From the NCBI GenBank assembly GCA_965279735.1, contig OZ257260.1, positions 2,161,279 through 2,225,278 on the forward strand: a DNA stretch of 64,000 nucleotides, read 5' to 3'. Below are positions 21,838 to 64,000 of the stretch, piece by piece. Positions within the stretch are counted from its first letter, which is position 1. The number at the start of each line of letters is the position of its first letter. Below the pieces are notes generated by a model that searched no databases, was not told the origin of the DNA, and saw nothing but the letters and a program-made list of their open reading frames with translations. This stretch comes from Steroidobacteraceae bacterium (GTDB lineage Bacteria; Pseudomonadota; Gammaproteobacteria; Steroidobacterales; Steroidobacteraceae). Made by a program: the position numbers and the translations under genes.

Positions 21838-22022
21838 GATCTTCTCCTTGAGATTCCATTGCGGCCCTACATTGAGGCCCGGCTACTGAACGTCTACTGA
21901 ATCGACGGGCGCGCAGGGAAACTGCCATCCGGAACGGCTTCGGCGCATAATTCAGGCGCCGTTCAGAAGCCGCCTCACGCACGTATCAAGCCCGCAGAAT
22001 TCGCAATCACGATCGAGCCCCA

Positions 22023-22688
22023 ATGTCTTCCTCAGAATTTCTTCCCGAACCCCTGCCGCAGGATCCATTTGTCCTGTTTGCAGAATGGTTCGGCACTGCC
22101 CGTGCGCAACGTGTGCAGCCGAATCCGGATGCTATGGTGCTGGCCACTACCGGCAAGGGCGGCAATCCCTCGGCTCGCGTCGTGCTCTGCAAGCACCTGG
22201 TAGCGACGCCGGGTTACGTGGTGTTCTTCACGAACTACCAGTCACGCAAGGGACAGGAACTCGAGTCAACGCCTCGCGCAGCAGCCGTCTTTCACTGGGA
22301 CACCCTGTCGAGACAGGTTCGCCTGGAAGGGCCGATCGTGCGCTCGCCTGCAGACGAGAGCGATGCGTACTTTGCGAGCCGGGCGCTTGCCAGCCGGGTC
22401 GGCGCGTGGGCGAGTGAACAAAGCCGGCCGTTGTCTTCCCGCGCAGCCCTTGCAGCACAGGTTGCTGCGACAGAAACCCGTTTCCACGTGCAACCAGGCG
22501 CAACGAACGGTGCTGTGCCACGCCCCCCGCATTGGGGAGGTTTTCGCCTATGGCCCGATACTCTTGAACTATGGGTGGAAGGTCCCGGCCGCACTCACGA
22601 TCGCGCGCGGTGGACGCGAACACTGGCACAGGCAGACGCGACGAGCTTCACTCCGGGCCTTTGGCAAGGCACTCGCCTGAACCCTTGA
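22023..22688 (+). CDS. pdxH: pyridoxamine 5'-phosphate oxidase
   Basis: 221 aa. The internal segment is RVVLCKHLVATPGYVVFFTNYQSRKGQEL and the C-terminus is WGGFRLWPDTLELW...RLNP, both typical of PdxH. Confidence 0.9.
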   Translation: MSSSEFLPEPLPQDPFVLFAEWFGTARAQRVQPNPDAMVLATTGKGGNPSARVVLCKHLVATPGYVVFFTNYQSRKGQELESTPRAAAVFHWDTLSRQVRLEGPIVRSPADESDAYFASRALASRVGAWASEQSRPLSSRAALAAQVAATETRFHVQPGATNGAVPRPPHWGGFRLWPDTLELWVEGPGRTHDRARWTRTLAQADATSFTPGLWQGTRLNP

Positions 22689-36850: not shown

Positions 36851-36861
36851 GTTCCCGCGTC

Positions 36862-37401
36862 TCAATCCAGCTTTCGCGTTTCAATCGCACCGGAAAGTGT
36901 TTCCTCACCGAGCGACACGTAGAGCATGCGATCCGAAACCGCGAGATCGATATCCATGCGCCGGTCGAGTCGCACCACCATCGCGGCCAGCAGCTCCGGA
37001 TCCACCTTGTTGATTTCCAGGGCGTCGCTGCGATGGATTCGCTCGCCCGCAAGGCGCGCGAGCCAGTGCTCCATGTCACGATGGGCATAGACCGCCACGC
37101 GCGGAGCCGCCTTGCCCGCCTTGTGCAGACGTGCAGCTTCGGGCGCTCCAATCTCGATCCATGCCTGCAGCACGCCCGTCAGGTCGCGCACCGAGAGGGC
37201 AGGCTCATCGGGATCAGAGAGCCCCTTCGAGAACGCTATACCCTCGGTGTATTCGAGGCAGTACGCCAGCAGTCGCGTGATGAGGAATTCCGCGGTCTCC
37301 GAAGGATGCCGCGCCATCCGCAGTTGCAGCGTTTCGTAAACGCCGCGGTCGGCATCGGCGAGGCGAACCGTGAAAACGTAAATCGTCGCGCTCAACGCCA
37401 T
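36862..37401 (-). CDS. yaeQ: YaeQ family protein
   Basis: From the internal ATG at 37401 it reads MALSATIYVFTVRLADADRGVYETLQLRMARHPSETAEFLITRLLAYCLEY, the YaeQ N-terminus. The length is ~179 aa. Confidence 0.85.
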   Translation of the reverse strand: MALSATIYVFTVRLADADRGVYETLQLRMARHPSETAEFLITRLLAYCLEYTEGIAFSKGLSDPDEPALSVRDLTGVLQAWIEIGAPEAARLHKAGKAAPRVAVYAHRDMEHWLARLAGERIHRSDALEINKVDPELLAAMVVRLDRRMDIDLAVSDRMLYVSLGEETLSGAIETRKLD

Positions 37402-37475
37402 GCTACAACTGCCTTCGTGGATCAATTCGCGATCATTGCACAGTACCGGGCCCGACCCGGAGAGAAAGCGGGCCG

Positions 37476-41346: not shown

Positions 41347-42615
41347 ATGGGGAAGAACAAAGTGACGAAAAGAAGCACGTTTGGACTGGGTATTGCCTTG
41401 CCTGCGATGTTTGCGCTGGGCGCTGGTCTGCTCTCTGGCCCGGCCTCAGGCCAGAACCTGAATATCGGCATAGCGCCTGTGACCCTGGGCGCGGAGCCCT
41501 ATTACTTCGACACCGCAGAACAGCACCGGATCCGCGTCGACATCGTGGCGCGAGGTCTTGCCCATCCTTTCAGCCTCGCCTTCCTGCCGAATGGCGATGC
41601 GCTGGTCGTGGAACGGGGTACGCGACTGCGACTGATCAAGAAAGCAGCGATAGCAGGAGAAACGGGCGTGCTTGTTGCACAGCCGGTGGAAGGAATCCCT
41701 GTCATAGCTCCCGTTCGCGGCGGCGGCATTCACGAGATCGCGCTTGATCCCGGTTTCGCCACCAACGGACTTGTCTATCTCTCCTACAACAAGCCGGGGG
41801 CACCCATCGCCACTTCGGATCCTGCCGCCCGCCCGCCGACTTCGATCGGTCTCGCACGCGCACGATTCGACGGCACCCGCCTGGTCGATCTGAAGGAAAT
41901 CCTGCGCGGCGAAGAAAGGCCCGGCGCAAGTGGGTCCCGCATCGCCTTCGGTCCCGACAACACGCTGTTCATGACGACCGGCGCGCCCTTCACCACCGAA
42001 GCGCAGGACCTCGGGAATGTCTACGGCAAAGTGTTGCGGATCAGGACCGATGGCAGCATCCCCACCGACAATCCTTTTGTCGGCCGCAAGGGTGCGAGGC
42101 CGGAGATCTATTCTTTCGGACATCGCGATTCGCTCGGGCTTGCCTTCCAGCCACGGTCCGGCACCCTGCTTTCGCTCGAGTACGGACCGAATGGTGGCGA
42201 TGAAATCAACGTCGTGCTGCCCGGCCACAACTACGGCTGGCCGACGTACAGCTACGGCAGGACGTACGAGGGTCCTCGCGTCTCCGCCCTGCCACTGGGC
42301 AAGGACATCGAACAACCGCTCGTCGTCTGGCTGCCGTCGATCGCACCGACCGGCATGACTTTCTATACCGGCGGCCAATTCCCTGCATGGGTAGGCAATG
42401 TGTTTGTCGGCAGCGGTCGCCGCGGCGAAGTGCCGCGGACGGGTGGACTCGAACGCATCGTCTTCAACGACAAGCTGGAAGAACTGCGCCGCGAAACGCT
42501 GCTGACCGACCTGCACCAGCGCATCCGCGACGTCCGCCAGGGCCCTGATGGCCTCCTCTATGTCCTGACCGATGAGGATGACGGAGCGCTCTTGAGGATT
42601 TCCCCCGCGAAATAG
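41347..42615 (+). CDS. PQQ-dependent soluble sugar (aldose/sorbosone) dehydrogenase, beta-propeller
   Basis: 422 aa with a signal peptide. The sGDH-type motifs are FGHRDSLGLAF, GPNGGDEINVVLPGHNYGWP and GLLYVLTDEDDGALLRISP. Confidence 0.85.
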   Translation: MGKNKVTKRSTFGLGIALPAMFALGAGLLSGPASGQNLNIGIAPVTLGAEPYYFDTAEQHRIRVDIVARGLAHPFSLAFLPNGDALVVERGTRLRLIKKAAIAGETGVLVAQPVEGIPVIAPVRGGGIHEIALDPGFATNGLVYLSYNKPGAPIATSDPAARPPTSIGLARARFDGTRLVDLKEILRGEERPGASGSRIAFGPDNTLFMTTGAPFTTEAQDLGNVYGKVLRIRTDGSIPTDNPFVGRKGARPEIYSFGHRDSLGLAFQPRSGTLLSLEYGPNGGDEINVVLPGHNYGWPTYSYGRTYEGPRVSALPLGKDIEQPLVVWLPSIAPTGMTFYTGGQFPAWVGNVFVGSGRRGEVPRTGGLERIVFNDKLEELRRETLLTDLHQRIRDVRQGPDGLLYVLTDEDDGALLRISPAK

Positions 42616-44917: not shown

Positions 44918-45901
44918 ATGCACAGCAGCCCATCCGCGTTCTTCCTTTTCATCGCTGGCAGCCTGCTGTTGCCGGCCGCATCGTGCCTGGCGGCGGTGGA
45001 TTCATCGACGTTGCCACCCTCGGCCGAGGGCGCTGAAGAGCTGACAGAGATCATCATCACGGCAAGGGAGCCGCGCTATGCGGCACCGACGCAGCGCGAC
45101 CGGATCGGCCGCATCTGGGCGCCCGTATTCATCAATGACCAGGGTCCGTTTCGCCTCGTGCTGGACACCGGTGCCAGCCATTCCGCCATTACTGCGGAAG
45201 TCGCCGAGGCCCTACAGCTCACTGCCAATCCGGCGGACAACGCGAAACTGCTGGGCGTGACCGGTTCAGCGGTGGTGTCGACCGTCCGGGCGAAGTCGCT
45301 CGCTGTCGGTGATCTGCAATTGACGGGCAAGCGCCTGCCCATCATCGACGATGCCATGGGTGGGGCTCAGGGCATCCTCGGCAGCGAGGGTCTCGCAGAC
45401 AAGCGCGTCCACATCGACTTTCGGGATGATTTCATCCTGATCAGGCGTTCAAGGAATGAGCGCGCACCGGCGGGTTTTCTCACGATTCCGATCAAGTTCT
45501 CGCGCGGCAACCTGCCGATGGTCGACGCCATGATGGGTGGTGTGCGCGTCACGGCTGTCATCGATACCGGTGCCCAGACCACGATCGCCAATCTGGCGAC
45601 GCGTGAAGCGCTGTATCAGTGGCAGCTGAAACGGCCTTCGGTCGACACCATCATCGGCACCACCGCGGACATCCAGAAGGGCGAGGGTTACTCTGCGCCG
45701 CCCATCCTCATCGGCGGACTGCAACTCCGCAGCGACCGCACTTCCTTTCTTGACCTGTACATCTTCCACCACTGGAAGCTGATCGATAAGCCAGCCGTCC
45801 TCATCGGCATGGATGCGCTCGGACTCTTCGATACGCTCATCATCGACTACCGGCGGGCCGAATTGCAGGTCCGCATGCGGCCTCCGGATTCGGATAGCTG
45901 A
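44918..45901 (+). CDS. secreted retropepsin-like (clan AA) aspartic protease with two DTG lobes
   Basis: A signal peptide is present. There are two catalytic-type motifs, LVLDTGASHSAI and AVIDTGAQTTIA. Confidence 0.7.
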   Translation: MHSSPSAFFLFIAGSLLLPAASCLAAVDSSTLPPSAEGAEELTEIIITAREPRYAAPTQRDRIGRIWAPVFINDQGPFRLVLDTGASHSAITAEVAEALQLTANPADNAKLLGVTGSAVVSTVRAKSLAVGDLQLTGKRLPIIDDAMGGAQGILGSEGLADKRVHIDFRDDFILIRRSRNERAPAGFLTIPIKFSRGNLPMVDAMMGGVRVTAVIDTGAQTTIANLATREALYQWQLKRPSVDTIIGTTADIQKGEGYSAPPILIGGLQLRSDRTSFLDLYIFHHWKLIDKPAVLIGMDALGLFDTLIIDYRRAELQVRMRPPDSDS

Positions 45902-46445: not shown

Positions 46446-46609
46446 TGTGAATCCCCCTTTTGATGACGGAAACAGGACGCGGTCGAGGTTTGCACACCTG
46501 CGATTCTTTGGAAAGACAGCCAGACCTCTACCGCGTTGCTGCTGGTTGCGTTCCGTAGACGGCAGGCTGAGACTTGACCCTGGCTGTTGCTCTGGATGAG
46601 GTTGCCGTA

Positions 46610-47368
46610 ATGAAATCCAATTGGAAGATCCTGCCGGCCCTCGTTCTGCTCGCCGCGTTGGATACGGCCGACGCAGCTTCCAGCGGCAGCCTGCTCGACC
46701 TGATCAAACCCAGGACTGCGGCGACGGCTTCTGCTGGCGCACTATCGGAAGACCAGGTGGTTGGTGGCCTGAAGGAAGCGCTCGGCAAGGGTGTGCAACA
46801 GGCCGTCACGACGCTCGGCAAACAGAACGGCTTCCTCGGCGATGCCGCAGTGAAAATCCCCATGCCTTCCAGCCTGCAGAAGGTCGAGAAGGGTCTGCGG
46901 GCAGTGGGCAAAGGCCAGCTCGCTGACGAATTCGTGACCACGATGAACCGCGCGGCCGAACAGGCCGTGCCGGAAGCCGCCGGCATCCTTGGCGATTCGG
47001 TGAAGCAGATGTCGATCGCCGATGCGAAGTCGGTTCTCACCGGGGGCGATACCGCCGCCACCGATTACTTCCGTCGTTCCAGCCAGACCGCACTGCGCGA
47101 CCGCTTGCTGCCCATCATCAAGGCTTCCACGGAGAAAGCGGGCGTCACCTCCTCTTACAAACAGATGGCGGGCAAGGCGAGCGGTGCGCTCGGCAAATTC
47201 GGGGGCGGCCTGATCGGCACCGAGATGCCGGACCTCGACAGCTACATCACGGACAAGGCTCTCGATGGCCTGTTCCTGAAAATCGCGGACCAGGAAAAAC
47301 AGATCCGCCAGAATCCCGTCGCCCGCACGAGCGATCTACTCAAGACCGTGTTCGGCTCGACCAAGTAA
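46610..47368 (+). CDS. DUF4197 domain protein (exported)
   Basis: From the ATG at 46610 it reads MKSNWKILPALVLLAALDTADA. The segment LSEDQVVGGLKEALGKGVQQAVTTLGKQNGFLGDAAVKIPMP matches my memory of DUF4197. Confidence 0.7.
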   Translation: MKSNWKILPALVLLAALDTADAASSGSLLDLIKPRTAATASAGALSEDQVVGGLKEALGKGVQQAVTTLGKQNGFLGDAAVKIPMPSSLQKVEKGLRAVGKGQLADEFVTTMNRAAEQAVPEAAGILGDSVKQMSIADAKSVLTGGDTAATDYFRRSSQTALRDRLLPIIKASTEKAGVTSSYKQMAGKASGALGKFGGGLIGTEMPDLDSYITDKALDGLFLKIADQEKQIRQNPVARTSDLLKTVFGSTK

Positions 47369-47375
47369 ACGATCC

Positions 47376-48320
47376 GTGCACAGCCTCGAGTCCGAGCTCC
47401 GCGAGCTCCATTCATCGCAGTTGCTGCCCGAAGCGGACGCCGCGCGCGCCATCGCCCTTGAGAATGGCAGTGTCTTTTCCCTGCACCGCGAGCTGCTGTT
47501 CGTGCTCTACGGTGCGGTGGCATCGCTCGTTGCAGGCATCGGCCTCGTCATCAAGAACAACCTCGACCGGATAGGTCCTGTCACCCTGATCGTCGCCTTG
47601 CTTGTTGTCGCCGGGGCCTGCTACGCGAGCGCCATCCGCACGATGCTGCGTGGCGAGTCACGATCCTTGCCGGGTGACTACGTGTTGCTGCTGGGAGCTC
47701 TGACCTTCAGCGCAACCCTGGGTTATGCCGAAACACAATTTCATTGGCTGGGTGGGGACTGGTCGAAACATCTGCTCGTGCTGGCGGTACTGCATGCCTC
47801 GACGGCGTACTGGCTCGACTCACGACTGGTGTTGTCCCTCGCGCTCACCTCGTTCACTACCTGGCTCGGCGTAGAAGCACAGTGGGGAGTCCTGCTCGAA
47901 TCCGGCCGTTCGCTCACCTCTGCCGGTTACCGAAGCCTCATTGCTGCCATCACGTTCTTCGTGGCACTCGTCATCCATCGTGCCTTGGGCGCCAAGCGCG
48001 ATTTTGTTCCGGTGTACGAACACTTTGCGGGCAACCTTGCGTTCTGGGGTGCGCTGGCCCTGGGCTTTGCCGACAGCACACGATTGATCGGAGTGGTCCT
48101 GCTTGCAGCATTGACGACAGGCGCTGCGATGCTTGGCTTACGCCGGTCACGCGAGAGTTTCATTGTTTATGCGATCGGCTACGCCACGTTTGGCGCGTGC
48201 GTGCTTGAGGCGCAGCTCCTGCGCGATGCACTGCCTGTTGCGCTCGCGATTCTGACCACCATCGTGATCGCAGCCGTCCTGCTCTGGCGGCTGCGCGCTG
48301 CAGTGAAGGCGGGCCATTGA
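47376..48320 (+). CDS. polytopic membrane protein (DUF2157-like, tentative)
   Basis: 314 aa. A soluble N-terminal ~35 aa is followed by ~8 TM segments. It overlaps the next gene by 4 nt. Confidence 0.55.
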   Translation: MHSLESELRELHSSQLLPEADAARAIALENGSVFSLHRELLFVLYGAVASLVAGIGLVIKNNLDRIGPVTLIVALLVVAGACYASAIRTMLRGESRSLPGDYVLLLGALTFSATLGYAETQFHWLGGDWSKHLLVLAVLHASTAYWLDSRLVLSLALTSFTTWLGVEAQWGVLLESGRSLTSAGYRSLIAAITFFVALVIHRALGAKRDFVPVYEHFAGNLAFWGALALGFADSTRLIGVVLLAALTTGAAMLGLRRSRESFIVYAIGYATFGACVLEAQLLRDALPVALAILTTIVIAAVLLWRLRAAVKAGH

Positions 48321-49408
48321 ACCTCGTCCGGCCTTCGGTTCAGCAGGAGCGCTGGCTCGCAGCGATCTCCCGTTACCTGCCCAAGCAGGAACTGATTGAA
48401 CGAACTGGCGGATGGAAGACCGGCGCGCTGGTGAGTCGCTGCCTGTTCTTCGTCCTGGGGCTCGTCGCAGCAGGCACTATCCTGGCCATCTTTCATCTCC
48501 TTGAGATTCCTCAGGCGAATGGCATCGCGGGGCTGGTGCTGCTCGGCGCAGCGGAGTGGTTGATCCAGCAGCGCCGCTTTTTCTGGTCAGGTATAGAGGA
48601 AGCGCTCTGGGCCTCCGGCTTGATCGCGATTTCCGTCGGTATCATCGAAACGATCACCCGATGGGATGATATCGCTGCAGCGTTGCTGATTGCTGTCGCG
48701 CTCCTGTTGGCAGGATGGCGTTTGCTCAATCCGCTTTTCACGACTGCGGGCGCGGGCGTGGCTTCCGTAGCGGTCGGGATGATTTTCAATGCACGCTGGA
48801 GCGGCAGTGGCGAACCGGTGGCAAGCCTGTTCTGTTTCGCGCTCGCGACCGTGGCCCTCATTTCAGGCAGCCGCTCGTTCAAGCGACCCGCTCACGATCG
48901 CATGCTGGACTGGCTGGTCGTGGCCATGCCCGCCGCCGGTTGCGTGTGGACGGAAATCTCATGGTCCGGACAACAGCCTGAAAGCGCATCTGGCTGGTCT
49001 GCATTCGTGCGGTGGCTGCCACTGCTGATGTCACTCACGTTCGGCATTGCAGCCGCATGGATCGGCATCCGTCGCCGTACTCACTCGCCCCTCCTCGCGG
49101 CGCTCGTTTGTACGCTCTGCATTGCCTATACCGTTTATCCGGCTGTGGGCATGGATCTGGAGTGGTACCTGTTTCTCTGGGGAGGTGCCGCACTGCTGCC
49201 AGCCATTGCCATAGAGCGTTACCTGCGCACGCCGCGCAAAGGCATCACCTCAAAGAACATCGGCGATAGCGCAACGGCACAGAAACTGCTGGAGGTGATG
49301 GGCACTGCAGTGATGGCTCCTCAGACCGCGCAGACTCCACCAGAGAGCGCAGGCTATCAAGGACAGGGCGGTGGTTTTGGCGGCGGAGGTGCAAGCGGCA
49401 GATACTGA
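48317..49408 (+). CDS. polytopic membrane protein with glycine-rich C-terminal tail
   Basis: 363 aa with ~9 TM segments. The C-terminus is PPESAGYQGQGGGFGGGGASGRY. Confidence 0.55.
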   Translation: MNLVRPSVQQERWLAAISRYLPKQELIERTGGWKTGALVSRCLFFVLGLVAAGTILAIFHLLEIPQANGIAGLVLLGAAEWLIQQRRFFWSGIEEALWASGLIAISVGIIETITRWDDIAAALLIAVALLLAGWRLLNPLFTTAGAGVASVAVGMIFNARWSGSGEPVASLFCFALATVALISGSRSFKRPAHDRMLDWLVVAMPAAGCVWTEISWSGQQPESASGWSAFVRWLPLLMSLTFGIAAAWIGIRRRTHSPLLAALVCTLCIAYTVYPAVGMDLEWYLFLWGGAALLPAIAIERYLRTPRKGITSKNIGDSATAQKLLEVMGTAVMAPQTAQTPPESAGYQGQGGGFGGGGASGRY

Positions 49409-51520: not shown

Positions 51521-51937
51521 TCAATCCAGCAATGCAGTCAGTTTTCGAGGCGCCAGGAATCTGTAGCTCGCGACCAGCAGGCGACCCACCCTGTCCCAAT
51601 CGGGATCATCGAGGACTATACCGACGATGTTGGAAAACCACACCGGACGAAAGAACGGAGCGTTGTCGAAACTCGCCGGATCGAATTCCGGCCCGGGGGT
51701 GCGAAACGTGAGAACGCAGAGCGGACCGTCTGATGCAGCAGCCTTCGCATAAGCCGGGGGCCAGCCGCCACTGATCATGAGCACATGAGCGAAATTCTTC
51801 TTGCGCACGCACCAGCGCGTCCCCGCCCACGCATGCTCCTCGTAGGCCTCAGGCAACTCGAGACATATTGCGCGCAGCTCTTTGAGGACGACGAGCGGAA
51901 CTCGTGGACGGGTGGCTGGTGCGGATCCTTCTCTCAT
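51521..51937 (-). CDS. MmcQ/YjbR family DNA-binding protein
   Basis: 138 aa. LRAICLELPEAYEEHAWAGTRWCVRKKNFAHV is the typical YjbR N-terminal pattern. Confidence 0.7.
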   Translation of the reverse strand: MREGSAPATRPRVPLVVLKELRAICLELPEAYEEHAWAGTRWCVRKKNFAHVLMISGGWPPAYAKAAASDGPLCVLTFRTPGPEFDPASFDNAPFFRPVWFSNIVGIVLDDPDWDRVGRLLVASYRFLAPRKLTALLD

Positions 51938-52198
51938 TACTCTCTTCTCAGCGCCTGCAAGAGGTTGATTCCGGCAGAGACCTGAGGAACGTACATTTCA
52001 CTTAACTTATTGGACGCGACAGCAATTGTAAAATCGCCTGTATTTCTCGCAGCTCGCTTAAATCCCTCGGCCACCGGTGAAGTGCGATTCCAGTCGCACT
52101 TTCACTACCTCATCAGCAAATCGAATCGAGCGGGCGATAAGGTGCCGACACTTGTTCATCACTGTCTGTCTTTAGCAACTTCTTCAAGGCAAAAACTC

Positions 52199-53890
52199 AT
52201 GAGTCACTCCGCTGCCAGGCGCGATCTGTTCTCAATGTCCAATCCCCTGCAATGGTTGCTCATGGCTTTCTGGGCCGTGGCGATGATGGTGGGTGGAGCG
52301 GCAAATGCGAGCGTAGCTGTGCGTGTTGATGCAGACCAAGATCCAATTAAGTCCTTTGTAACTGTCACTGATGCGACCACTGGACTTCCGATTGCAGGGT
52401 TGAACGCTAGCAACTTTACTGTTTTCGTCGATGGCGTCGCGATTTCATCACCGCCGAGCGTCGATTTGCCGCCGGAGCAAGATAGCGCCAAAAGAGTTTC
52501 CGTAGTCTTTGCGATGGATTTCAGCCAATCCGTTCAAACCGCTGCTTTGGCCCCAATGCAAAACGCCGTAATCGCTTTCATCAACGCAATGAAACCGGGC
52601 GATTATGCGGCCATAGTCAAGTTCAATTTCACTAATCCAAGCAAGGCATCTGTTGTCCAGCCGTTCACGCTAATTGACCCAGCCGGAAAGTCAGCATTGG
52701 CGGGTGCAGTCATGGCCCCTTATCCCGGTGAGGGAACCAACCTTTACGACGCCATTGTGAAGTCGACTCAAGAATTCACAGCGGCCGCGGGCACTTTACC
52801 CAGCGGCCCAAAGGCCATCATCGTAATCGGCGATGGCGGCGAAGGCTCCTCAACCAACACAGTGAACGCTGCCTTGGCGGCCGCGAACGGGCAAAACCTG
52901 TCGATCTTCACGGTTGGGGTTGGTGAATTTGCTACTACTTCAGGGCAGCAGCGCTTGACGCAAATTGCCGCCCAGGCCAGCGGTGAGTTCTATGCGGCAC
53001 CGAACGATACTGAAATCACCAATGCTTACACAGACATCAAGAAGCGCCTTAGCAACGAGTATCAACTGTCTTTCAGCTCGACCATCAGCCCCACACCTCC
53101 TTGCGATCCGCACACCATAAAGGTTCAAGTGGGTTCGCAGGAATCAGTCGTCGAATCATTCACCCGCTGCACACCGTCGCTGACTACAGTTCCTCAGTTG
53201 GCAGGCAAAACGCAGGCCGAGGCGTCTACAGCACTCGCTACCGCGTCTTTGACATTGGGAACGGTTACCACGCGTTCAAGCTCTACAGTTGCCGCAGGAA
53301 AGGTAATCAGCCATACGCCAATCGCAGGATCAGTCGTAAATACAACTACGGCCGTCAATATCGTGATTTCGACTGGCGCATCCGCACCAGATGTCGTCGG
53401 TTTGACGCAAGCAGCGGCTTCTACCGCAATCGCGAACGCTGGATTGGTAGTTGGCAGCGTCACGCAGCAAACGAGTTCCAATGTCAGCGTCGGCTTCGTA
53501 ATTAGCCAAACTCCTCCCGCCGGAACGTCAGTGGTCGCGGGTTCTTCGGTAAATCTCGTCGTATCAACCGGTCCGCAGATGGTCGCAGCACCCAACGTCG
53601 TCGGCTCGACACAGGGCGCCGCTACTACTTCTATCACTGGAGCGGGACTGGTTCTCGGCACAGTCACGCAGCAGTCCAGTTCCACTGTCGCTTCGGGCAG
53701 CGTGATCAGTCAGACACCGGCGGCCGGCACTTCGGTTGCGGTTGGGTCAACAGTGACGCTCGTCGTATCGAATGGACCACCCCCGGCATCTAACGGCGGC
53801 GGTGGTGGTGGCGGTGGCGCCACGGGCCCGTTCGAGATCCTCTTCGGCGTGGGATTGCTGGCCATGGCGCGACGCAGACGGATGGTCTGA
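52199..53890 (+). CDS. exported VWA-domain protein with three PASTA repeats and a Gly8-TM-RRRR C-terminal sorting-type tail
   Basis: The leader is WLLMAFWAVAMMVGGAANA. The MIDAS motif is VVFAMDFSQS (DxSxS). Three ~66-aa repeats span 53186-53776 (VPQLAGKTQAEASTAL...VISTG, PDVVGLTQAAASTAI...VVSTG, PNVVGSTQGAATTSI...VVSNG). The tail is GGGGGGGGATGPFEILFGVGLLAMARRRRMV. Third codon positions are visibly more A/T-rich than in the neighbouring genes. The start is 52199 or 52235. Confidence 0.8.
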   Translation: MSHSAARRDLFSMSNPLQWLLMAFWAVAMMVGGAANASVAVRVDADQDPIKSFVTVTDATTGLPIAGLNASNFTVFVDGVAISSPPSVDLPPEQDSAKRVSVVFAMDFSQSVQTAALAPMQNAVIAFINAMKPGDYAAIVKFNFTNPSKASVVQPFTLIDPAGKSALAGAVMAPYPGEGTNLYDAIVKSTQEFTAAAGTLPSGPKAIIVIGDGGEGSSTNTVNAALAAANGQNLSIFTVGVGEFATTSGQQRLTQIAAQASGEFYAAPNDTEITNAYTDIKKRLSNEYQLSFSSTISPTPPCDPHTIKVQVGSQESVVESFTRCTPSLTTVPQLAGKTQAEASTALATASLTLGTVTTRSSSTVAAGKVISHTPIAGSVVNTTTAVNIVISTGASAPDVVGLTQAAASTAIANAGLVVGSVTQQTSSNVSVGFVISQTPPAGTSVVAGSSVNLVVSTGPQMVAAPNVVGSTQGAATTSITGAGLVLGTVTQQSSSTVASGSVISQTPAAGTSVAVGSTVTLVVSNGPPPASNGGGGGGGGATGPFEILFGVGLLAMARRRRMV

Positions 53891-53915
53891 CAGCCTCTTC
53901 AACCTGGATGACAAA

Positions 53916-53944
53916 CCCCGGCCTCGTGCCGGGGTTTTCTTTTC
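53916..53944 (+). terminator. rho-independent terminator (CCCCGGC-ctcgt-GCCGGGG followed by TTTTCTTTTC)
   Basis: Read directly from the sequence. It lies 26 nt after the VWA-PASTA stop, between convergent genes. Confidence 0.75.
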
Positions 53945-53949
53945 TGGAG

Positions 53950-54654
53950 CTACAGCGGCAAGGTGTCCAGCGTGTTGTAGATGTTCTTAAGCCAGGTCTT
54001 GACGCGCTGGCGCTCCAGCATGCCCAGTGCATCCGGCTCATTGCGATTGTTGATCGCGGACCAGAAGCTCGCGCTGTGCCGGTCGATCTTGTTCATGCTG
54101 GCTTCGTGGAGTTGCGGCAGCGTGACCACTCGCGCACCGACCGCCAGCGCATCCTTGAGTGCCTGCGAATCCTCGAGCTGCGAAAAGTCCGACCCACGCC
54201 CCTGGTTCCGGACGACAAAGTAATTGGGCCCCGCGCCGAACGCGGCCACCAGCCGGCCGAGCAGATCGGCAGAATCCTTGCCGCTGTCCGCGAGATGCCA
54301 GAAATTGACGGTGACGCCCATCTCCGCCAGCAGCGTCAGCAGATCCGAGTCCTTGATCCAGCGCGTGAGAGGTGCTGCCGTCTGCGCGGCCAGATCGACG
54401 ATGGCGCTCTTCTGCACACCGGCAACCGGTTCCTCTTCGAAGGTCTTGACGATCCGGTCCAGGCCTTCATAGCTGTCGACGATGACAGGTGACGCGTAGT
54501 CAGCATAGAAGCGTGTGAACGAAGTGTGCGACCGATCGGTGTCGAAGCCCGTAAACGGCCTACCCTTGTCGATGAAATACTGGGCGAGAACACGTGCGGT
54601 CACCGATTTGCCGATGCCGCCTTTCTCGCCGCCGATGAAATTGAGGGAACTCAA
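53950..54654 (-). CDS. orphan ParA/MinD-superfamily P-loop NTPase, TraL-like
   Basis: The deviant Walker A is FIGGEKGGIGKS. The likely start is TTG at 54654, preceded by AGGAAATCACCC. The longest ORF reaches 54849, but its extra 65 aa look non-coding. The resemblance to IncP TraL (KGGVGKS...IDTD...) is from memory only. Confidence 0.6.
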   Translation of the reverse strand: MSSLNFIGGEKGGIGKSVTARVLAQYFIDKGRPFTGFDTDRSHTSFTRFYADYASPVIVDSYEGLDRIVKTFEEEPVAGVQKSAIVDLAAQTAAPLTRWIKDSDLLTLLAEMGVTVNFWHLADSGKDSADLLGRLVAAFGAGPNYFVVRNQGRGSDFSQLEDSQALKDALAVGARVVTLPQLHEASMNKIDRHSASFWSAINNRNEPDALGMLERQRVKTWLKNIYNTLDTLPL

Positions 54655-54793
54655 GGGTGATTTCCTGCCGGAAGGGAATGATCGCGAAAGTATAGACGCC
54701 CCGAAATGCAGGGCAGGCGCTATTTTCGATTCCTGAAGGCCATTGCTGATGGCCTGCCAGCCCAGGCCCTCTTTTGGTGCTTGCCTGTGTCTA

Positions 54794-56125
54794 CTAGCGC
54801 AACGGCGCAGGCCCCGTGTATTCAACGATGTAGAGACCGCCACCCGCACGATCTGCCGCGTAGATCAACCCCTTCTCGTCGACATAGACATCGTTGATCG
54901 CGATGTCCTCCATTTTTCCTGATGGCGCGGTGGGGACGAGCACGCCGATTTCCTGCGGCTTTTTCGGGTCAGCGATGGAGTACACACGCACGCCTGCGTT
55001 CTGGAAGGATGCGACTACGGTCTGGGTGAGCTTCGCAGCCGTTGCCTTCGGCCGGTTCATGTGGATGTTGTGCGCGCCGAACCGTCCTGCCTTGCAGAAC
55101 TCCTCAAGGCCCGCGGGATACGGAAACTGGGTGATTTCGTGCGGGTGGGTTTCGTCGCTGATATCCACGGTCCAGATGGGCTTCGGCCAGTCGGCGCAGG
55201 CTGGCTGGTTTGCTTCCTGCGTGACGATGGCGATATTGCGCTCGAAGAGCGGCAGGAATGAATGCCCGATGTATCCCGGCGTCACTGGAAACCAGGAACG
55301 CTGACCTATGAGCTTCGGCCTGGTCTTGTCCGCAATGTCGATGACGACAATGCCGCCATCGATCCACCCTGCATACACCCGATCGGGCCGCTCTGGAGAT
55401 ACAAACGCACTGTGCATCCGCACGCCGTCTTTCGTTTTCGTTCTCGGTAGCGGAGCGCCGGGCTCGCCTTTGCGCATCCCCGGCATCCACCAGCGACCGA
55501 TCTCCTTCGGGCTGCGCGGGTCGCGCATATCCACGATCATCAGGAACTGGTCATCGCCTCTTGGCGGCACCGCCGGAATGAAATCCGGAGAGCCGCTGGA
55601 TAGATACGCGTACTGGCCGTCGACGAACCACACGTAATGCGCGCCGCGGGATTCCCCTCCCGAAGTATTGAAATAGGAAATCTGTCTTGGCTTTGCGGGG
55701 TCGGTCACGTCGTAGACCAGAGCGCCACCCCCGGGCTGCCCTGGCAGATCGGTATTCTGCGCGACGACCATGGTCCGGCCGGAAACACCGAGGCTGTTGC
55801 AACGCACGTGTGGCGACAAGGTGGGCACCTGCGCCAGCACCCGGGGCGCCCGCGGGTTCGTCACATCAACCGTCGTGAAACAGGTGGGCGCTCCGGCGTG
55901 AGCGTAGAACAGCACCCGACGGCCGTCGGCATATTGCTCGAGGTCCAGGCCTTCCCCTCCGTTGCCGCGACCATTCAGGTCCGAGTGACCGACGATGCGC
56001 AGATTGAGCGCTTCACGGGGAGCGGGCTCCGCGGCTGAAGCCGCCATGGAGTATCCGGCCAACAGGAGCGCAAGCGCGCTTGATGCAGCGCACCGTACTT
56101 CTCGACGCCATGCTCGTGAGCTCAT
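54794..56125 (-). CDS. exported LVIVD-repeat beta-propeller protein
   Basis: From the ATG at 56125 there is a signal peptide (ALALLLAGYSMAASAAEP). Recurrent LVIVD-type units occur: ALVYDVTDPAKP, FLMIVDMRDPRSPKEI, GIVVIDIADKTRPK, VRVYSIADPKKPQEI and GLYIVEY. Confidence 0.7.
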   Translation of the reverse strand: MSSRAWRREVRCAASSALALLLAGYSMAASAAEPAPREALNLRIVGHSDLNGRGNGGEGLDLEQYADGRRVLFYAHAGAPTCFTTVDVTNPRAPRVLAQVPTLSPHVRCNSLGVSGRTMVVAQNTDLPGQPGGGALVYDVTDPAKPRQISYFNTSGGESRGAHYVWFVDGQYAYLSSGSPDFIPAVPPRGDDQFLMIVDMRDPRSPKEIGRWWMPGMRKGEPGAPLPRTKTKDGVRMHSAFVSPERPDRVYAGWIDGGIVVIDIADKTRPKLIGQRSWFPVTPGYIGHSFLPLFERNIAIVTQEANQPACADWPKPIWTVDISDETHPHEITQFPYPAGLEEFCKAGRFGAHNIHMNRPKATAAKLTQTVVASFQNAGVRVYSIADPKKPQEIGVLVPTAPSGKMEDIAINDVYVDEKGLIYAADRAGGGLYIVEYTGPAPLR

Positions 56126-56381
56126 TGCAAAACTCCTGCAGACAGAATCGCCGATCACATTCGATCGACTATACGGCGCGACACCCGGTCCGGCAAAGCA
56201 ATCAGCAGCACGAGACAACATTTCCAGCAGCCTCCCGTTTGCACACGGCGGCACAATGCCGCGATACTGCACGCGCCGTGAGCTTTCCGTCACTCAACAA
56301 GAGCCACCGCATGAAGAAAATCGCAATGGGAATCGCCGAGCTGGCATTGGCGGCCGCAGTACCTGCCAACGGGGGTTGACG

Positions 56382-59542: not shown

Positions 59543-60364
59543 TCAGCGTGGCTCAAGGGCAATCGGAATTGTCTGGACGACTTCGAATGCGTTGCTCGCG
59601 GCATGGTCCCATCTTTCGACAGTACAACGCCTGATGGATTCATCCGGCGAGTAACGGATGATGTTCACGGAGTTCGGGATGCCGCCCCGGATCCGGGTAG
59701 AGACAGCCGTACCAGCCTGCACCGCCCAGAGGGAGCGCGACAGTAAGGGTATGTCCTCATTGATCCGCCGCACGTAGGGTAGATGAATGTGCCCACCCAG
59801 GATCAGATCGGCGCCCGCGTCAGCCCAGGCGCGCAACGCCTCCGACGCGCCATGGAGCCGGTTCTTGCAATCCGCCGCCGTAATGACATGCGCGGGTTGA
59901 TGCGTGACGACGATGCGTAGCTGCCCCGGTTGCGCAGCTTCAAGGCGTGCCTTCACCGTCGCCACCTGGGCCGCCGACACTTCGCCATCCTCATGACGGC
60001 CAGGTCGGGTCGTATTGACGCCAATCACGAGCAAGGCCGGCAGGGAGATCTCCGGTTCAAGATTCTCGCCGAAGGCTTTCCGGAAGCCGGCATAGGGGCT
60101 CAGCATCCGGGCGGCCAGGTTGAAGAGCGGAATATCGTGATTGCCGGGAATCGCGAGCTTATGGGGCGCAGAAAGCGCAGTGAAAAATCGCCCTGCCGCC
60201 GTGAACTGGTGACTACGTGCACGTTGCGTGATGTCGCCGCTCAGGATCACGACATCGGGCTGCTCTCGCGAGCACAACGCCAACAGCGCTGCCACCACGG
60301 CTTGCTGTTCGGTGCCGAAATGTGGATCGGAAATATGCAGGATCGTGAGCGCCGATTCACTCAC
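59543..60364 (-). CDS. metallophosphoesterase (CpdA/calcineurin-like)
   Basis: The motifs are LHISDPHFG, SGDITQRA, GNHD and GGHIH. Confidence 0.85.
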   Translation of the reverse strand: MSESALTILHISDPHFGTEQQAVVAALLALCSREQPDVVILSGDITQRARSHQFTAAGRFFTALSAPHKLAIPGNHDIPLFNLAARMLSPYAGFRKAFGENLEPEISLPALLVIGVNTTRPGRHEDGEVSAAQVATVKARLEAAQPGQLRIVVTHQPAHVITAADCKNRLHGASEALRAWADAGADLILGGHIHLPYVRRINEDIPLLSRSLWAVQAGTAVSTRIRGGIPNSVNIIRYSPDESIRRCTVERWDHAASNAFEVVQTIPIALEPR

Positions 60365-61373: not shown

Positions 61374-62078
61374 ATGCAGGCAGTGCGTCGGGGCTTTTCC
61401 ACGGTGATTGCATTGGCGAAGCGCGAACTCGCCGCGGCGCTCGCGCTGCTTCTCATTGCAGGCGGCAGCCTGCTCTTCCTTGAGCTGGCGGAGGAAGTTT
61501 CCGAAGGTGAATCACACGAGGTCGATCGCGCGATCATGCTGGCGTTGCGCAACCCGGCGGATCTCTCCATTCCCCGCGGACCCGCCTGGTTACATCACGC
61601 GATGGTGGATATCACGAGCCTCGGCAGCAGTACCTGCCTGGCCCTGGTTACCCTCTTCACGGCGGGTCTGCTGCTGATCCTGAAGAAACGCCTTGAAGCG
61701 GTGCTGGTCGTGGTCGCCGTGACGGGGGCAGCCACTTTCATGACACTGTTGAAAGGCTTTTTCGACCGCTCGCGGCCGGATGTAGTGCCGCATCTCGTCG
61801 AGGTCTTCAATGAAAGCTTCCCGAGCGGGCATGCCATGGTGTCAACCGCGACCTACCTCACGCTCGGGACCCTGAGCGCTCACGCCAGCGAGCGACACCT
61901 TGCGGCGTACATTCTGGCTGCCGCCGCTTTGCTGACCATACTGATCGGCTGCAGCCGCGTGTACCTCGGCGTGCACTGGCCCACCGACGTGCTCGCCGGC
62001 TGGTGCGCCGGGGCCGTATGGGCCATGGGCTGCTGGCTCATCACCGTCTGGCTCCAGCGGCGCTCGCCGCGACGCTAG
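61374..62078 (+). CDS. PAP2 family phosphatase (membrane)
   Basis: The acid phosphatase motifs are KGFFDRSRPD, PSGH and SRVYLGVHWPTD. There are ~5 TM segments. Confidence 0.85.
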   Translation: MQAVRRGFSTVIALAKRELAAALALLLIAGGSLLFLELAEEVSEGESHEVDRAIMLALRNPADLSIPRGPAWLHHAMVDITSLGSSTCLALVTLFTAGLLLILKKRLEAVLVVVAVTGAATFMTLLKGFFDRSRPDVVPHLVEVFNESFPSGHAMVSTATYLTLGTLSAHASERHLAAYILAAAALLTILIGCSRVYLGVHWPTDVLAGWCAGAVWAMGCWLITVWLQRRSPRR

Positions 62079-63316
62079 CGCGGTTCGATCCGCAGGATTG
62101 CGCCCTGGTCTTCGTCGGTCACGACGTACAGCAAGCCATCAGGACCCTGTTGTACGTCGCGAATCCGCTGACCCAGATCGGCCAGCAAAGTCTCGCGACG
62201 CAGCTCTTCCATCTTCTCGTTGAAGAGGATGCGGTCGACGCGACCCGTGCCCGGAATTTCTCCGGTGCGCAAGCCGCCGACGAATACATCGCCGGTCCAC
62301 TTCGCCAGCTTGTCGCCGGTGTAGAAGGTGAAGCCGGAAACCGCGATCGCGGGCGTCCAGTAAACGACGGGGGGCTCGTAGCCCACGTGCGTCGGCAGAT
62401 CGGCCTGCCACGGACCCGGATATTTGCGCCCGTAGCTGACGAGCGGCCAGCCATAGTTCTTACCGGCGCGAATGACGTTGAGCTCATCGCCTCCGTTCGG
62501 ACCGTTCTCGCTTTCCCATACCTCACCGGTTTGCGGATGGAGGGCCAACCCGAGCGGACTGCGATGGCCGAGCGTGTAGATCTCAGGCTTGTAGCCAGCC
62601 TGGCCAACGAACGGATTGTCGCTCGGCACACTGCCATCGTCGCGGATGCGGAGAACCTTGCCGCCGTAGTTGCCGGGAGCCTGTGCATCGCCGCCACTCG
62701 TACCGATGTACAGCATGCCATCACGACCGAACGCGATGGGCACAGCGCCGCCCGCGTTGTCGTTGGCGACGAAGATGTCCTTCAGTTCAGCAAGTCCCTG
62801 CGCCGTCCATTTCGCCCGTGCCACGGCAATGCTCCTCTTGTCGTCGCCGAGCGGCTTCGTGTAACTGATGTACAGGAGCTGGTTCTGTGCGAACTGCGGA
62901 TGCAGCGCGACATCCATGTAACCGTGCACCGCGCCAGGGAGTCCGGAGATGCCCCTGGAAAATGCCACCGGACCGCCGCTGACGGGATTGGGATCCAGCT
63001 TGCCGTTGCGGATCACGCGCAGGCGACCTGCCCGCTCGGTCACGAGCAGTGTGCCATCCGGCAGGAACGTTGCACTGAAGGGATGGCTGAGTTCCTTCGT
63101 GACGACGACCACACGGATGTCCTGGCCTTCGCCCGTGGGGTAGTTGAAAGGGCCGTCATGGAGCGGCCGATCAGCAAGGCCGTCAGGCGCAATCGGGATT
63201 CCGGACTGGAAGGGCACGGTCCGCTGCGCGAATGCCGGCGCCATGACAGTGGTGGCCAGGACGGCCATGAGCGGCCAGCGCGCCCGCCTGGGTTGCAACA
63301 CCTGCGAATTCGACAT
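62075..63316 (-). CDS. PQQ-dependent soluble sugar dehydrogenase (paralog of 41347..42615)
   Basis: 413 aa with a signal peptide. The motifs are LGHRSPLGLAL, GPNGGDELNVIRAGKNYGWP and GLLYVVTDEDQGAILRIEP. Confidence 0.85.
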   Translation of the reverse strand: MSNSQVLQPRRARWPLMAVLATTVMAPAFAQRTVPFQSGIPIAPDGLADRPLHDGPFNYPTGEGQDIRVVVVTKELSHPFSATFLPDGTLLVTERAGRLRVIRNGKLDPNPVSGGPVAFSRGISGLPGAVHGYMDVALHPQFAQNQLLYISYTKPLGDDKRSIAVARAKWTAQGLAELKDIFVANDNAGGAVPIAFGRDGMLYIGTSGGDAQAPGNYGGKVLRIRDDGSVPSDNPFVGQAGYKPEIYTLGHRSPLGLALHPQTGEVWESENGPNGGDELNVIRAGKNYGWPLVSYGRKYPGPWQADLPTHVGYEPPVVYWTPAIAVSGFTFYTGDKLAKWTGDVFVGGLRTGEIPGTGRVDRILFNEKMEELRRETLLADLGQRIRDVQQGPDGLLYVVTDEDQGAILRIEPR

Positions 63317-63400: not shown

Positions 63401-64000
63401 CTACGGTTTCATCGCACCCTGCGGCACGGCGAACGCGATGAACTCGCCGCTATACCCTGCGCCCGAGACTGGAACGACGAGGTACTGCTTGCCGTTCAAC
63501 ATGTAGGTCATCGGCGAACCGGTCTGCGGTGCGGGCATGTAGACCGCGCCCACTTCAGTCCCCGTCATCTTGTCGTAGGCACGCAGCATGGCGCCGCGCC
63601 GGCCGTCGGGTGTGGTTCCGAACCCAGGTTCGCCGGCAACGACCAGCGAACCCATGACGAGTACACCCGTTCGTCCATTGGCCCTGCCTGTACGCGGAAT
63701 GGTGAGGCCACGAAGCGCAGGATGGTTCTTGATTGCATCAGGCGTTTCACCATGCGCCACCTGCCACACGATCTCGCCCTGGTTGATATCGATCGCCGAA
63801 ATCGTTCCATAGGGTGGTTTGAGCAGCGGCAATCCCTGCACGGTGACAGCAGGTGCCCCCGCCTCCGACGAAGATCCGACGACCGGTGCCGCAGGAGGCG
63901 CTGCTGGATCACGGGCCTGTCCATTCACGTAGCTGAAGGCTTCCGGGTCCGGTCCGGGCACGAGGCCGATCACCGATGGACTGCGGAAAGAATAAACATA
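63401..64000 (-). CDS. PQQ-dependent dehydrogenase (glucose/quinate/alcohol type), C-terminal part; N-terminus beyond the right window edge
   Basis: The frame stays open to position 64000. KPPYGTISAIDINQGEIVWQVAHGE, LRAYDKMTGTEV and PMTYMLNGKQYLVVPVSGAG are typical C-terminal propeller blades of quinoprotein dehydrogenases. Confidence 0.75.
   Translation of the reverse strand, partial: YVYSFRSPSVIGLVPGPDPEAFSYVNGQARDPAAPPAAPVVGSSSEAGAPAVTVQGLPLLKPPYGTISAIDINQGEIVWQVAHGETPDAIKNHPALRGLTIPRTGRANGRTGVLVMGSLVVAGEPGFGTTPDGRRGAMLRAYDKMTGTEVGAVYMPAPQTGSPMTYMLNGKQYLVVPVSGAGYSGEFIAFAVPQGAMKP

Follow-up and report, generated by a model that had tools for sequence, protein, structure and literature searches.

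What does a gammaproteobacterium do with a protein in which a von Willebrand factor A (VWA) domain is joined to PASTA repeats, and why does its gene look foreign among its neighbours? Both questions are raised by a gene, here called the VWA-PASTA gene, found in a 64-kb stretch of DNA (the window) assigned to a member of the Steroidobacteraceae. A preliminary description, made from the sequence by eye, had taken its product for a horizontally acquired surface protein, with a metal-binding VWA domain, three PASTA-like repeats and a C-terminal sorting signal. The computational analysis reported here confirms the architecture, and places the protein in a family which belongs to the host's own clade and whose conserved C-terminal tail resembles the GlyGly-CTERM signals processed by rhombosortases. 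To a joint reading, in which the protein would be exported, sorted through its tail by a rhombosortase-type enzyme and delivered to the surface by type II secretion, there to display a VWA head on a stalk of PASTA modules, we give slightly better than even chances.

Domain architecture of the VWA-PASTA protein and its family

Translation of the region 52199-53890, on the forward strand, yielded 563 amino acids followed by a stop codon, in the frame and at the coordinates originally proposed. The longest open reading frame (ORF) of the gene is opened by an alternative start, a TTG at position 52010; the ATG at 52199 was taken as the start, because the N-terminus then equals those of the homologs in length and character. 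Full-length homologs share 48-58% identity with the protein, the best of them 54-58%. The features identified are reported in Table 1. The domain order initially read from the sequence (signal peptide, VWA domain, PASTA repeats, tail) is correct, and has to be completed only by the addition of small beta regions on both sides of the VWA domain. A structural model was obtained by AlphaFold2 from an alignment of 29 homologs; its mean pLDDT (predicted local distance difference test) is 82, and poor definition is limited to residues 1-13, residues 31-33 and the tail. Conservation was evaluated on two family alignments, composed of 13 (A1) and 29 (A2) sequences.

The N-terminus shows the layout of a Sec-type signal peptide, with a basic n-region, a hydrophobic helix at residues 15-30 and an A-N-A motif preceding Ser38, and aligns with the N-termini of the homologs. 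A Tat signal was also considered, given a pair of arginines within the n-region, and was rejected as unlikely, since the pair is not conserved in the homologs. Besides the signal peptide, the only predicted helix of hydrophobic type is found at residues 546-559, within the tail.

The VWA domain is recognized by Pfam with a score of 51.6 bits, against a gathering threshold of 23.8, and carries a complete metal-ion-dependent adhesion site (MIDAS). The DFSQS motif, already noticed by eye as a DxSxS element, provides D107, S109 and S111 (nucleotides 52517-52531), and the site is completed by T180 (52736) and D212 (52832). D107, S111 and D212 are invariant in both alignments, and S109 in A1; conservation is at least 90% for S109 in A2 and for T180 in A1. 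In the small beta region that follows the domain, C324 is invariant and C302 at least 90% conserved, and the two residues presumably form a disulfide.

When the VWA region was compared with the PDB, by sequence profile and by structure, the matches included integrin I-domains, the alpha2delta VWA domain and BatB. For the N-terminal two-thirds of the protein, Foldseek retrieved 4fx5, inter-alpha-inhibitor H1 (6fpy), BatB (3ibs) and VWA domains of integrin and anthrax-receptor type; the matches to 4fx5 and to inter-alpha-inhibitor H1 reach beyond the VWA core. The TIGR03436 model (acidobact_VWFA) aligns over residues 50-316 with E=4.6e-20 and 72.4 bits, which is below its curated cut-off of 81.25; the protein is related to that family, without being a member of it. 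With its full MIDAS, the VWA head is most simply viewed as a predicted adhesin or matrix binder, which would hold a carboxylate-bearing ligand by means of a divalent cation.

The three tandem repeats lie exactly at the positions first assigned to them, 53186-53776, and are genuine PASTA domains. The Pfam model PF03793 matches them in three stretches, with 138.2 bits against a threshold of 23.2 (E=8e-41), and Foldseek finds the PASTA ectodomains of Staphylococcus aureus PrkC (3py9, E=5e-15; 3m9g) and of Mycobacterium tuberculosis PknB (5e12 and 5e10). PknB is also the match of a PDB sequence-profile search, at E=2.6e-24, and the PASTA portion of NF033483 (Stk1/PknB) aligns over residues 326-524. 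Pfam and Foldseek therefore agree on the PASTA fold, and do not assign the repeats to a different one, such as the Ig-like fold. Identity between repeats ranges from 50 to 68% in protein and from 52 to 66% in DNA, the upper values being those of repeats 2 and 3, and these low figures indicate that the duplications are old. A recent repeat expansion, or phase variation, was considered and rejected, both because of the limited DNA identity and because the run of eight glycines in the tail is encoded by a mixture of GGC and GGT codons.

PASTA domains are classically found beside kinase and penicillin-binding domains, and are best known as binders of peptidoglycan fragments. Within the family described here their number varies from 0 to 4: most members are 350-390 amino acids long and are devoid of PASTA units, having only Pro- or Gly-rich linkers, and others contain 2, 3 or 4 units, or an unrelated C-terminal domain in their place. 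This variable number, together with the fact that poly-Pro linkers, poly-Gly linkers or another domain can take the place of the repeats, suggests that they would act as a stalk or spacer rather than as a muropeptide sensor.

PASTA repeats 50-62% identical to those of the VWA-PASTA protein were also observed in many metagenomic proteins of 800-980 amino acids, in which a lipoprotein-type signal (..SGC/AGC) is followed by 6-14 tandem repeats (for example P0002, P0003, P0018, P0053, P0088 and P0095). An extra large non-PASTA domain is present at the C-terminus of P0088 and P0095.

The window is assigned to the chromosome of a Steroidobacteraceae gammaproteobacterium on the basis of its Ppk1 protein (2793-4922), which is 80-90% identical to proteins of Steroidobacteraceae, Steroidobacter, Povalibacter and Peristeroidobacter; other housekeeping genes contained in it are ppx, hemJ, dbpA and the malic enzyme gene. 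A scan of one genome per species identified 43 loci with relatives of the VWA-PASTA gene, nearly all of them from Steroidobacteraceae or from unclassified gammaproteobacterial metagenome-assembled genomes. The homologs are found among core genes, such as those for LptF, LptG and NADH dehydrogenase subunits, and, as recognized by eye from the translations, beside aminotransferase-like and translational-GTPase-like genes; synteny around them is kept within sub-lineages. The family defined by the VWA domain and the tail is native to the host's own clade. The fusion of VWA and PASTA domains, which had seemed unusual for a diderm, is unusual as far as the literature is concerned, since no paper was found on VWA-PASTA fusions or on sortases in Steroidobacter, but it recurs within the Steroidobacteraceae clade, where it was counted in no fewer than 9 intact genome loci and in dozens of proteins from metagenomes.

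The C-terminal tail and its possible processing

The tail was first described as eight glycines, GPFE, a hydrophobic helix and four arginines, arranged in the tripartite layout of a sorting signal, and both the sequence and the homologs support this description. The glycines are G533-G540 (53795-53818), the helix extends from about 53831 to 53869 (ILFGVGLLAMA), and the arginines (53870-53881) are followed by a terminal MV; no Cys is present in residues 527-563. The same layout, composed of a Gly run, a small residue, any residue, a Gly, a hydrophobic helix and an Arg cluster, is kept in every intact homolog of the 43 genome loci, whether PASTA-bearing or not. G537-G540 are invariant in both alignments; G543 is invariant in A1 only, with a conservation of at least 90% in A2.

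The pattern G(3+)-[A/S/T]-x-G was used to select 129 distinct family tails, which were then tabulated. The last Gly run usually comprises 5-11 residues, and is followed by Ala in 66% and by Ser in 34% of the tails; three residues past the following Gly, Glu is found in 67% and Asp in 4% of them, for an acidic fraction of 71%. The resulting consensus is Gn-[A/S]-x-G-x-x-[E/D], and the window tail, GGGGGGGG-AT-G-PFE-ILFGVGLLAMA-RRRR, matches the family pattern. When the pattern was searched in about 760 kb, corresponding to the homolog loci and the window, matches were found only in members of the VWA family.

The tail had been attributed to either the GlyGly-CTERM or the PEP-CTERM type. The PEP-CTERM model TIGR02595 does not match the window tail, nor any of nine homolog tails, even at E<=10, and the window tail does not contain a Pro-Glu-Pro motif, reading G-P-F-E; MYXO-CTERM matches of the tails are all below the cut-off of 20, and the lack of Cys in the motif sets the window tail apart from that type. 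The attribution to GlyGly-CTERM is supported through the homologs: five of the nine homolog tails score above the TIGR03501 cut-off (17.7-19.0 bits against 15.5) and these align column for column with the tail of the window, which by itself is not matched by this model. By the biocuration rule of Haft and Varghese (2011; PMC3237569), a tail with a low score is accepted when homology links it to trusted examples; according to the same work, GlyGly-CTERM motifs never contain Cys, and VWA-domain proteins are listed among their targets. On the strength of the passing homologous tails, of the alignment running through the tail and of this rule, the window tail was filed, by homology, as probably GlyGly-CTERM-like.

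As already observed by eye, no sorting enzyme is encoded in the window: neither a rhomboid-like nor an exosortase-like gene was found in its 64 kb, and its multi-pass membrane ORFs gave no match to rhombosortase and exosortase models. NCBIfam scans of the multi-pass membrane proteins adjoining the homologs identified LptF/LptG, Nuo subunits, ACR3 and unknown proteins, and no sorting enzyme among them. Candidates from elsewhere were discarded: a tblastn search of plasmid records with Escherichia coli GlpG, used as an approximate query, produced generic rhomboids only and no rhombosortase, and the candidate from Acinetobacter reached 37 bits on TIGR03902, whose cut-off is 84. A rhombosortase gene adjoins its target mainly in single-target genomes, and the two are far apart when the genome has several targets (PMC3237569); the absence of the enzyme near the gene is therefore to be expected if the genome has several targets.

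At two of about 45 loci, L030 and L047, the VWA-tail gene has an exopolysaccharide locus as its neighbour. The best models for the export protein, the chain-length determinant, the tyrosine kinase and the outer-membrane protein of these loci, all matched below threshold, are TIGR03027, TIGR03007, TIGR03018 and TIGR03016; no exosortase was seen in the stretches examined. At L047 and at a further locus, L008, the VWA-tail gene has a divergent neighbour encoding a membrane protein, 90% identical between the two loci (411 amino acids for the called gene of L047), which possibly belongs, as a Wzy- or ligase-like enzyme, to the adjoining exopolysaccharide locus.

In the reading that we favour, the VWA-PASTA protein would be exported by Sec, and its C-terminal helix would hold it transiently in the inner membrane, with the Arg cluster on the cytoplasmic side. 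The tail would act as a GlyGly-CTERM-type signal, which a rhombosortase with its gene in another part of the genome would cleave at the Gly run or directly behind it; the new C-terminus would be lipid-modified, and type II secretion would move the protein to the outer surface. Cleavage, lipid modification and type II secretion have been shown for VesB of Vibrio cholerae (PMC6219818). On the surface, the C-terminus would provide the anchor and the three PASTA modules a rigid stalk, while the N-terminal VWA head would bind a carboxylate of its ligand through the divalent cation held by the MIDAS, making the protein an adhesin or a matrix-binding protein. With the anchor at the C-terminus, the order of VWA head, PASTA stalk, Pro/Gly linker and anchor makes geometric sense.

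Several results weigh against processing by a rhombosortase. The window tail, taken alone, does not match TIGR03501 when compared with NCBIfam, and its only match is a weak one (12.5-13.5 bits) to the GlyGly-CTERM C-terminal end of NF038115. No rhomboid was found in 793 kb around 45 homologs, within 10 kb of each, when ORFs were searched by phmmer with GlpG and, over the whole 793 kb, by a four-sequence rhomboid hidden Markov model (HMM), a search of limited sensitivity for divergent rhombosortases. Furthermore, to our knowledge, canonical GlyGly-CTERM tails do not feature a Glu three residues past the conserved Gly. The failure of the curated model and the lack of a sorting enzyme nearby would also be in keeping with a plain, unprocessed membrane anchor, in which the Gly run is a flexible linker and the VWA and PASTA domains are periplasmic, so that the latter could contact peptidoglycan or muropeptides. 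Such a contact would agree with the best known activity of PASTA domains, and with the PknB and PrkC ectodomains being the closest solved relatives of the repeats; membrane-anchored bacterial VWA proteins, moreover, do exist, as exemplified by BatB (3ibs, found by Foldseek) and by 4rck (found by PDB profile search and deposited as a hypothetical membrane-spanning protein). We nonetheless regard a plain anchor as unlikely, since it would not keep an invariant GGGG-[A/S]-x-G and an acidic preference at a fixed distance across 129 distinct tails, since homologous tails pass the curated GlyGly-CTERM cut-off, and since the PASTA repeats are dispensable in most members of the family.

The Glu so often found at the start of the helix recalls that of PEP-CTERM, and could mark a separate, unnamed signal, Gn-[A/S]-x-G-x-x-E, recognized by an enzyme of the exosortase family or by an undescribed one, with a possible link to exopolysaccharide. 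The sub-threshold matches to XrtA/PEP-CTERM-system models in the exopolysaccharide loci of L030 and L047 point in this direction, and the occurrence of the tail on a single protein family in the roughly 760 kb searched suggests a dedicated pairing. Because of these neighbours and of the frequent Glu, an exosortase-type or novel enzyme is kept as a minority rival, to which we concede rather little probability: the Pro-Glu-Pro motif and any TIGR02595 match are missing, neither the window nor the neighbouring multi-pass membrane ORFs yielded an exosortase, just 2 of about 45 loci adjoin exopolysaccharide genes, and tails devoid of Glu, such as GSLGLGSLALGL..., are typical GlyGly-CTERM matches. 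Even less probable, in our judgement, is a combination of a dedicated tail signal, served by a non-rhombosortase enzyme and maybe coupled to exopolysaccharide, with PASTA repeats that would be functional ligand binders, for instance of peptidoglycan fragments from neighbours.

Base composition, origin and surroundings of the gene

The gene and its leader of about 260 nucleotides had been judged by eye to be richer in A and T than the flanking genes, and this was borne out by windowed GC, by third-position GC content (GC3) and by codon usage. GC3 is significantly low, at 0.583 in the VWA-PASTA gene and 0.726±0.039 in the 57 other called genes of the window, whose minimum is 0.612 (z=-3.7); overall GC is 0.564, against 0.614±0.019 for the rest of the window (z=-2.6), and the window-derived codon-adaptation index is 0.565, against 0.696±0.045 (z=-2.9). 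Segments of 1.5 kb starting between 51.6 and 52.3 kb have a GC content of 0.535, against 0.612±0.018, which is the lowest of the 64 kb. The GC content of the 261-nt leader is 0.487, compared with an intergenic mean of 0.593, and the neighbouring YjbR-like gene (51521-51937) has a somewhat low GC3 (0.65). Homologs from 24 other genomes match their neighbours in GC3 (z between -1.8 and +1.3, mean -0.13), so that a low GC3 is not a trait of the family.

In addition, the genes flanking the VWA-PASTA gene in the window have no counterpart in any homolog locus. The low GC3 and the lack of synteny suggest that this copy was acquired horizontally at its present site from a relative of lower GC content, and not from a Gram-positive bacterium; nothing points to a Gram-positive source. 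The preliminary description of the gene as foreign-looking holds for composition only, the family being native to the Steroidobacteraceae, with homologs in core contexts and with native GC3.

The proposed transfer meets a difficulty, in that all 24 homologs measured have a GC3 of at least 0.70 and no donor was identified that could account for the low value. As far as the origin alone is concerned, the gene could be native and vertically inherited: in a surface gene with poor expression, weak codon selection or a locally biased mutation pattern would account for the low GC3. The membership of the host in the very bacterial family to which the VWA-tail proteins belong would be in line with this, as would the lowish GC3 of the adjoining YjbR-like gene and the fact that no lower-GC donor or close homolog is known, the best identity being 58%; signs of mobile elements were also missing, as no tRNA gene was found, no notable repeats, direct or inverted, flank the gene, and the neighbours scanned include neither an integrase nor a transposase. 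Vertical descent is thus a possible account, with clearly less than even chances in our opinion, because among the homologs measured this copy is the only one to deviate, its flanking genes are absent near all the others, and it falls in the lowest-GC region of the whole window.

No match to the sigma-70 consensus and no Rfam match were found in the 261-nt leader, and the leader is not conserved upstream of the homologs; a regulatory RNA in this region, considered as a candidate, was rejected on account of the last two results. Downstream, a terminator scan found a terminator-like hairpin beginning 23 nt past the stop codon of the VWA-PASTA gene; the number of such sites is not enriched, as 2 were present in the scanned region and 2.5±1.5 were expected from shuffles. 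The hairpin just after the stop codon and the divergent orientation of the upstream neighbour suggest that the gene is a monocistronic unit. The ParA-like ATPase encoded further downstream shows a weak match to TraL, a conjugal transfer protein (50 bits, cut-off 360), and no other transfer genes are found near it. Its ORF and that of the adjacent LVIVD-repeat protein overlap by about 55 nt, which indicates that the true start of one of the two genes is probably located downstream of the longest-ORF start.

Other features of the window are listed in the second part of Table 1. The two membrane proteins, of 314 and 363 amino acids, encoded after the DUF4197 gene have no Pfam or NCBIfam match; the larger one ends in a Gly-rich tail, GQGGGFGGGGASGRY. 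No gene was called, by a simple GC3-based caller, in the stretches 21838-22570, 29481-30658, 36851-37475 and 59644-60360 (625-1178 nt, GC 0.61-0.63); nothing was found in them by Rfam at gathering thresholds, and they may hold genes with atypical codons, pseudogenes or RNA genes.

Table 1. Features of the VWA-PASTA gene, of the surrounding window and of homolog loci. Positions refer to the window, except where a locus (L) is named; aa, amino acids.
Feature	Position	Strand	Evidence or remarks
Complete coding sequence, VWA-PASTA protein with GlyGly-CTERM-like tail	52199..53890	+	translation, Pfam and NCBIfam scans, homologs
Sec-type signal peptide (aa 1-37), predicted to be cleaved after A-N-A	52199..52309	+	sequence, model helix 15-30
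N-terminal beta-strand region, aa 38-101	52310..52501	+	model strands 37-44, 50-58, 73-77, 87-89
VWA domain, aa 102-275	52502..53023	+	Pfam PF00092, E=1.7e-13
End of VWA fold and small beta region, aa 276-329	53024..53185	+	model helix 270-286, strands 288-292, 304-311, 316-322
PASTA repeat 1, aa 330-394	53186..53380	+	PF03793, repeat alignment, folds 3py9, 3m9g, 5e12
PASTA repeat 2, aa 396-460	53384..53578	+	evidence as for repeat 1
PASTA repeat 3, aa 463-526	53585..53776	+	best of the Pfam stretches; aa 463-525 cover positions 2-64 of the 64-position model
Putative C-terminal sorting region	53777..53887	+	PPPASN linker, Gly8, A-T-G-P-F-E, hydrophobic helix, RRRR, MV
Divergent intergenic, leader/promoter region	51938..52198		261 nt; lowest-GC intergenic region of the window
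Intrinsic-terminator-like hairpin and T-rich run	53913..53947	+	hairpin 53913-53937, 10 bp, 7 G-C pairs
Orphan ParA/MinD-type ATPase	53950-54849	-	directly downstream, convergent; Walker A GGEKGGIGKS
LVIVD-repeat protein, 499 aa, secreted-looking	54794-56293	-	weak choice-of-anchor B match
Exopolysaccharide loci beside VWA-tail gene	L030 2470-10538; L047 1-9747		XrtA/PEP-CTERM-system models best, all sub-threshold
Membrane protein, 442-450 aa by longest ORF, 10-11 predicted helices	L047 8512-9864; L008 280-1608	-	no family match
DUF4197 protein, first of a three-gene run	46574-47368	+	run 46574-49408
Two multi-pass membrane proteins, genes overlapping by 4 bp	within 46574-49408	+	314 aa (~7 helices), 363 aa (~8 helices)
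Pair of neighbouring small membrane proteins, paralogs of 165 and 162 aa	26326-27325	+	both DUF6644
Paralogous glucose/sorbosone-type dehydrogenase-like genes	41347-42615; 62075-63316	+; -	sub-threshold TIGR03606
PQQ (pyrroloquinoline quinone) beta-propeller gene at window edge	63401-63973	-	
327-aa protein, two retropepsin-like aspartyl protease domains	44918-45901	+	Asp_protease_2 matched twice

Significance and comparison with known systems

The Steroidobacteraceae are a widespread family of soils and sediments, to which surface anchoring by the GlyGly-CTERM/rhombosortase system would be extended, if the proposed sorting is correct. More than 100 proteins, now annotated just as "VWA domain-containing protein", would moreover be united in a family, which would be an instance of PASTA domains used in a diderm as interchangeable stalk elements, away from their kinase and penicillin-binding setting. 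As the tail variant is below the curated HMM cut-off in many members, current models probably under-call targets of this kind. The VWA-PASTA fusion, its restriction to Steroidobacteraceae-like bacteria and the variant tail, with its extended Gly run and conserved Glu, seem to be undescribed; VWA passengers have already been described for GlyGly-CTERM tails (PMC3237569), and the PASTA and VWA domains are each well known. Existing ideas are not overturned, and the value of the family lies in better annotation and in a test case for the specificity of sorting signals.

With the targets of the GlyGly-CTERM/rhombosortase system, for which VesB is the model, the VWA-PASTA protein shares a signal peptide, the lack of any other membrane helix, a Cys-free motif and a tripartite tail, made of a Gly-rich motif with a small residue, a helix rich in Gly, Ala and Leu, and an Arg cluster. 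VWA passengers occur there too, and the PASTA repeats are what the present protein adds. It differs in the long Gly run of its family (mostly 5-11 residues), in the frequent acidic residue and in the sub-threshold score of the window tail; moreover, the Steroidobacteraceae are not among the organisms in which the system was studied.

The fold of the repeats, and their tandem arrangement in units of about 65 amino acids, are those of M. tuberculosis PknB (2kui, 5e10, 5e12) and S. aureus PrkC/Stk1 (3py9, 3m9g). In contrast to these, the VWA-PASTA protein contains no kinase or penicillin-binding domain, its host is a diderm gammaproteobacterium, and its repeats, whose number varies from 0 to 4 among orthologs, are located between a VWA head and a C-terminal tail. 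A VWA domain with flanking beta regions is shared with TIGR03436 and with inter-alpha-inhibitor-like proteins, the Foldseek alignments to 6fpy and 4fx5 covering 324-370 columns; we know of no description of PASTA repeats or of a Gly-rich tail in those families. Finally, BatA and BatB of Bacteroides are similarly envelope-associated VWA proteins with a MIDAS (target-normalised TM-score of 0.70 for 3ibs, and a weak match to NF047508), but they are anchored by N-terminal helices and encoded in a bat operon, whereas the VWA-PASTA gene appears to be monocistronic, and its product has a predicted cleavable signal peptide and a C-terminal tail.

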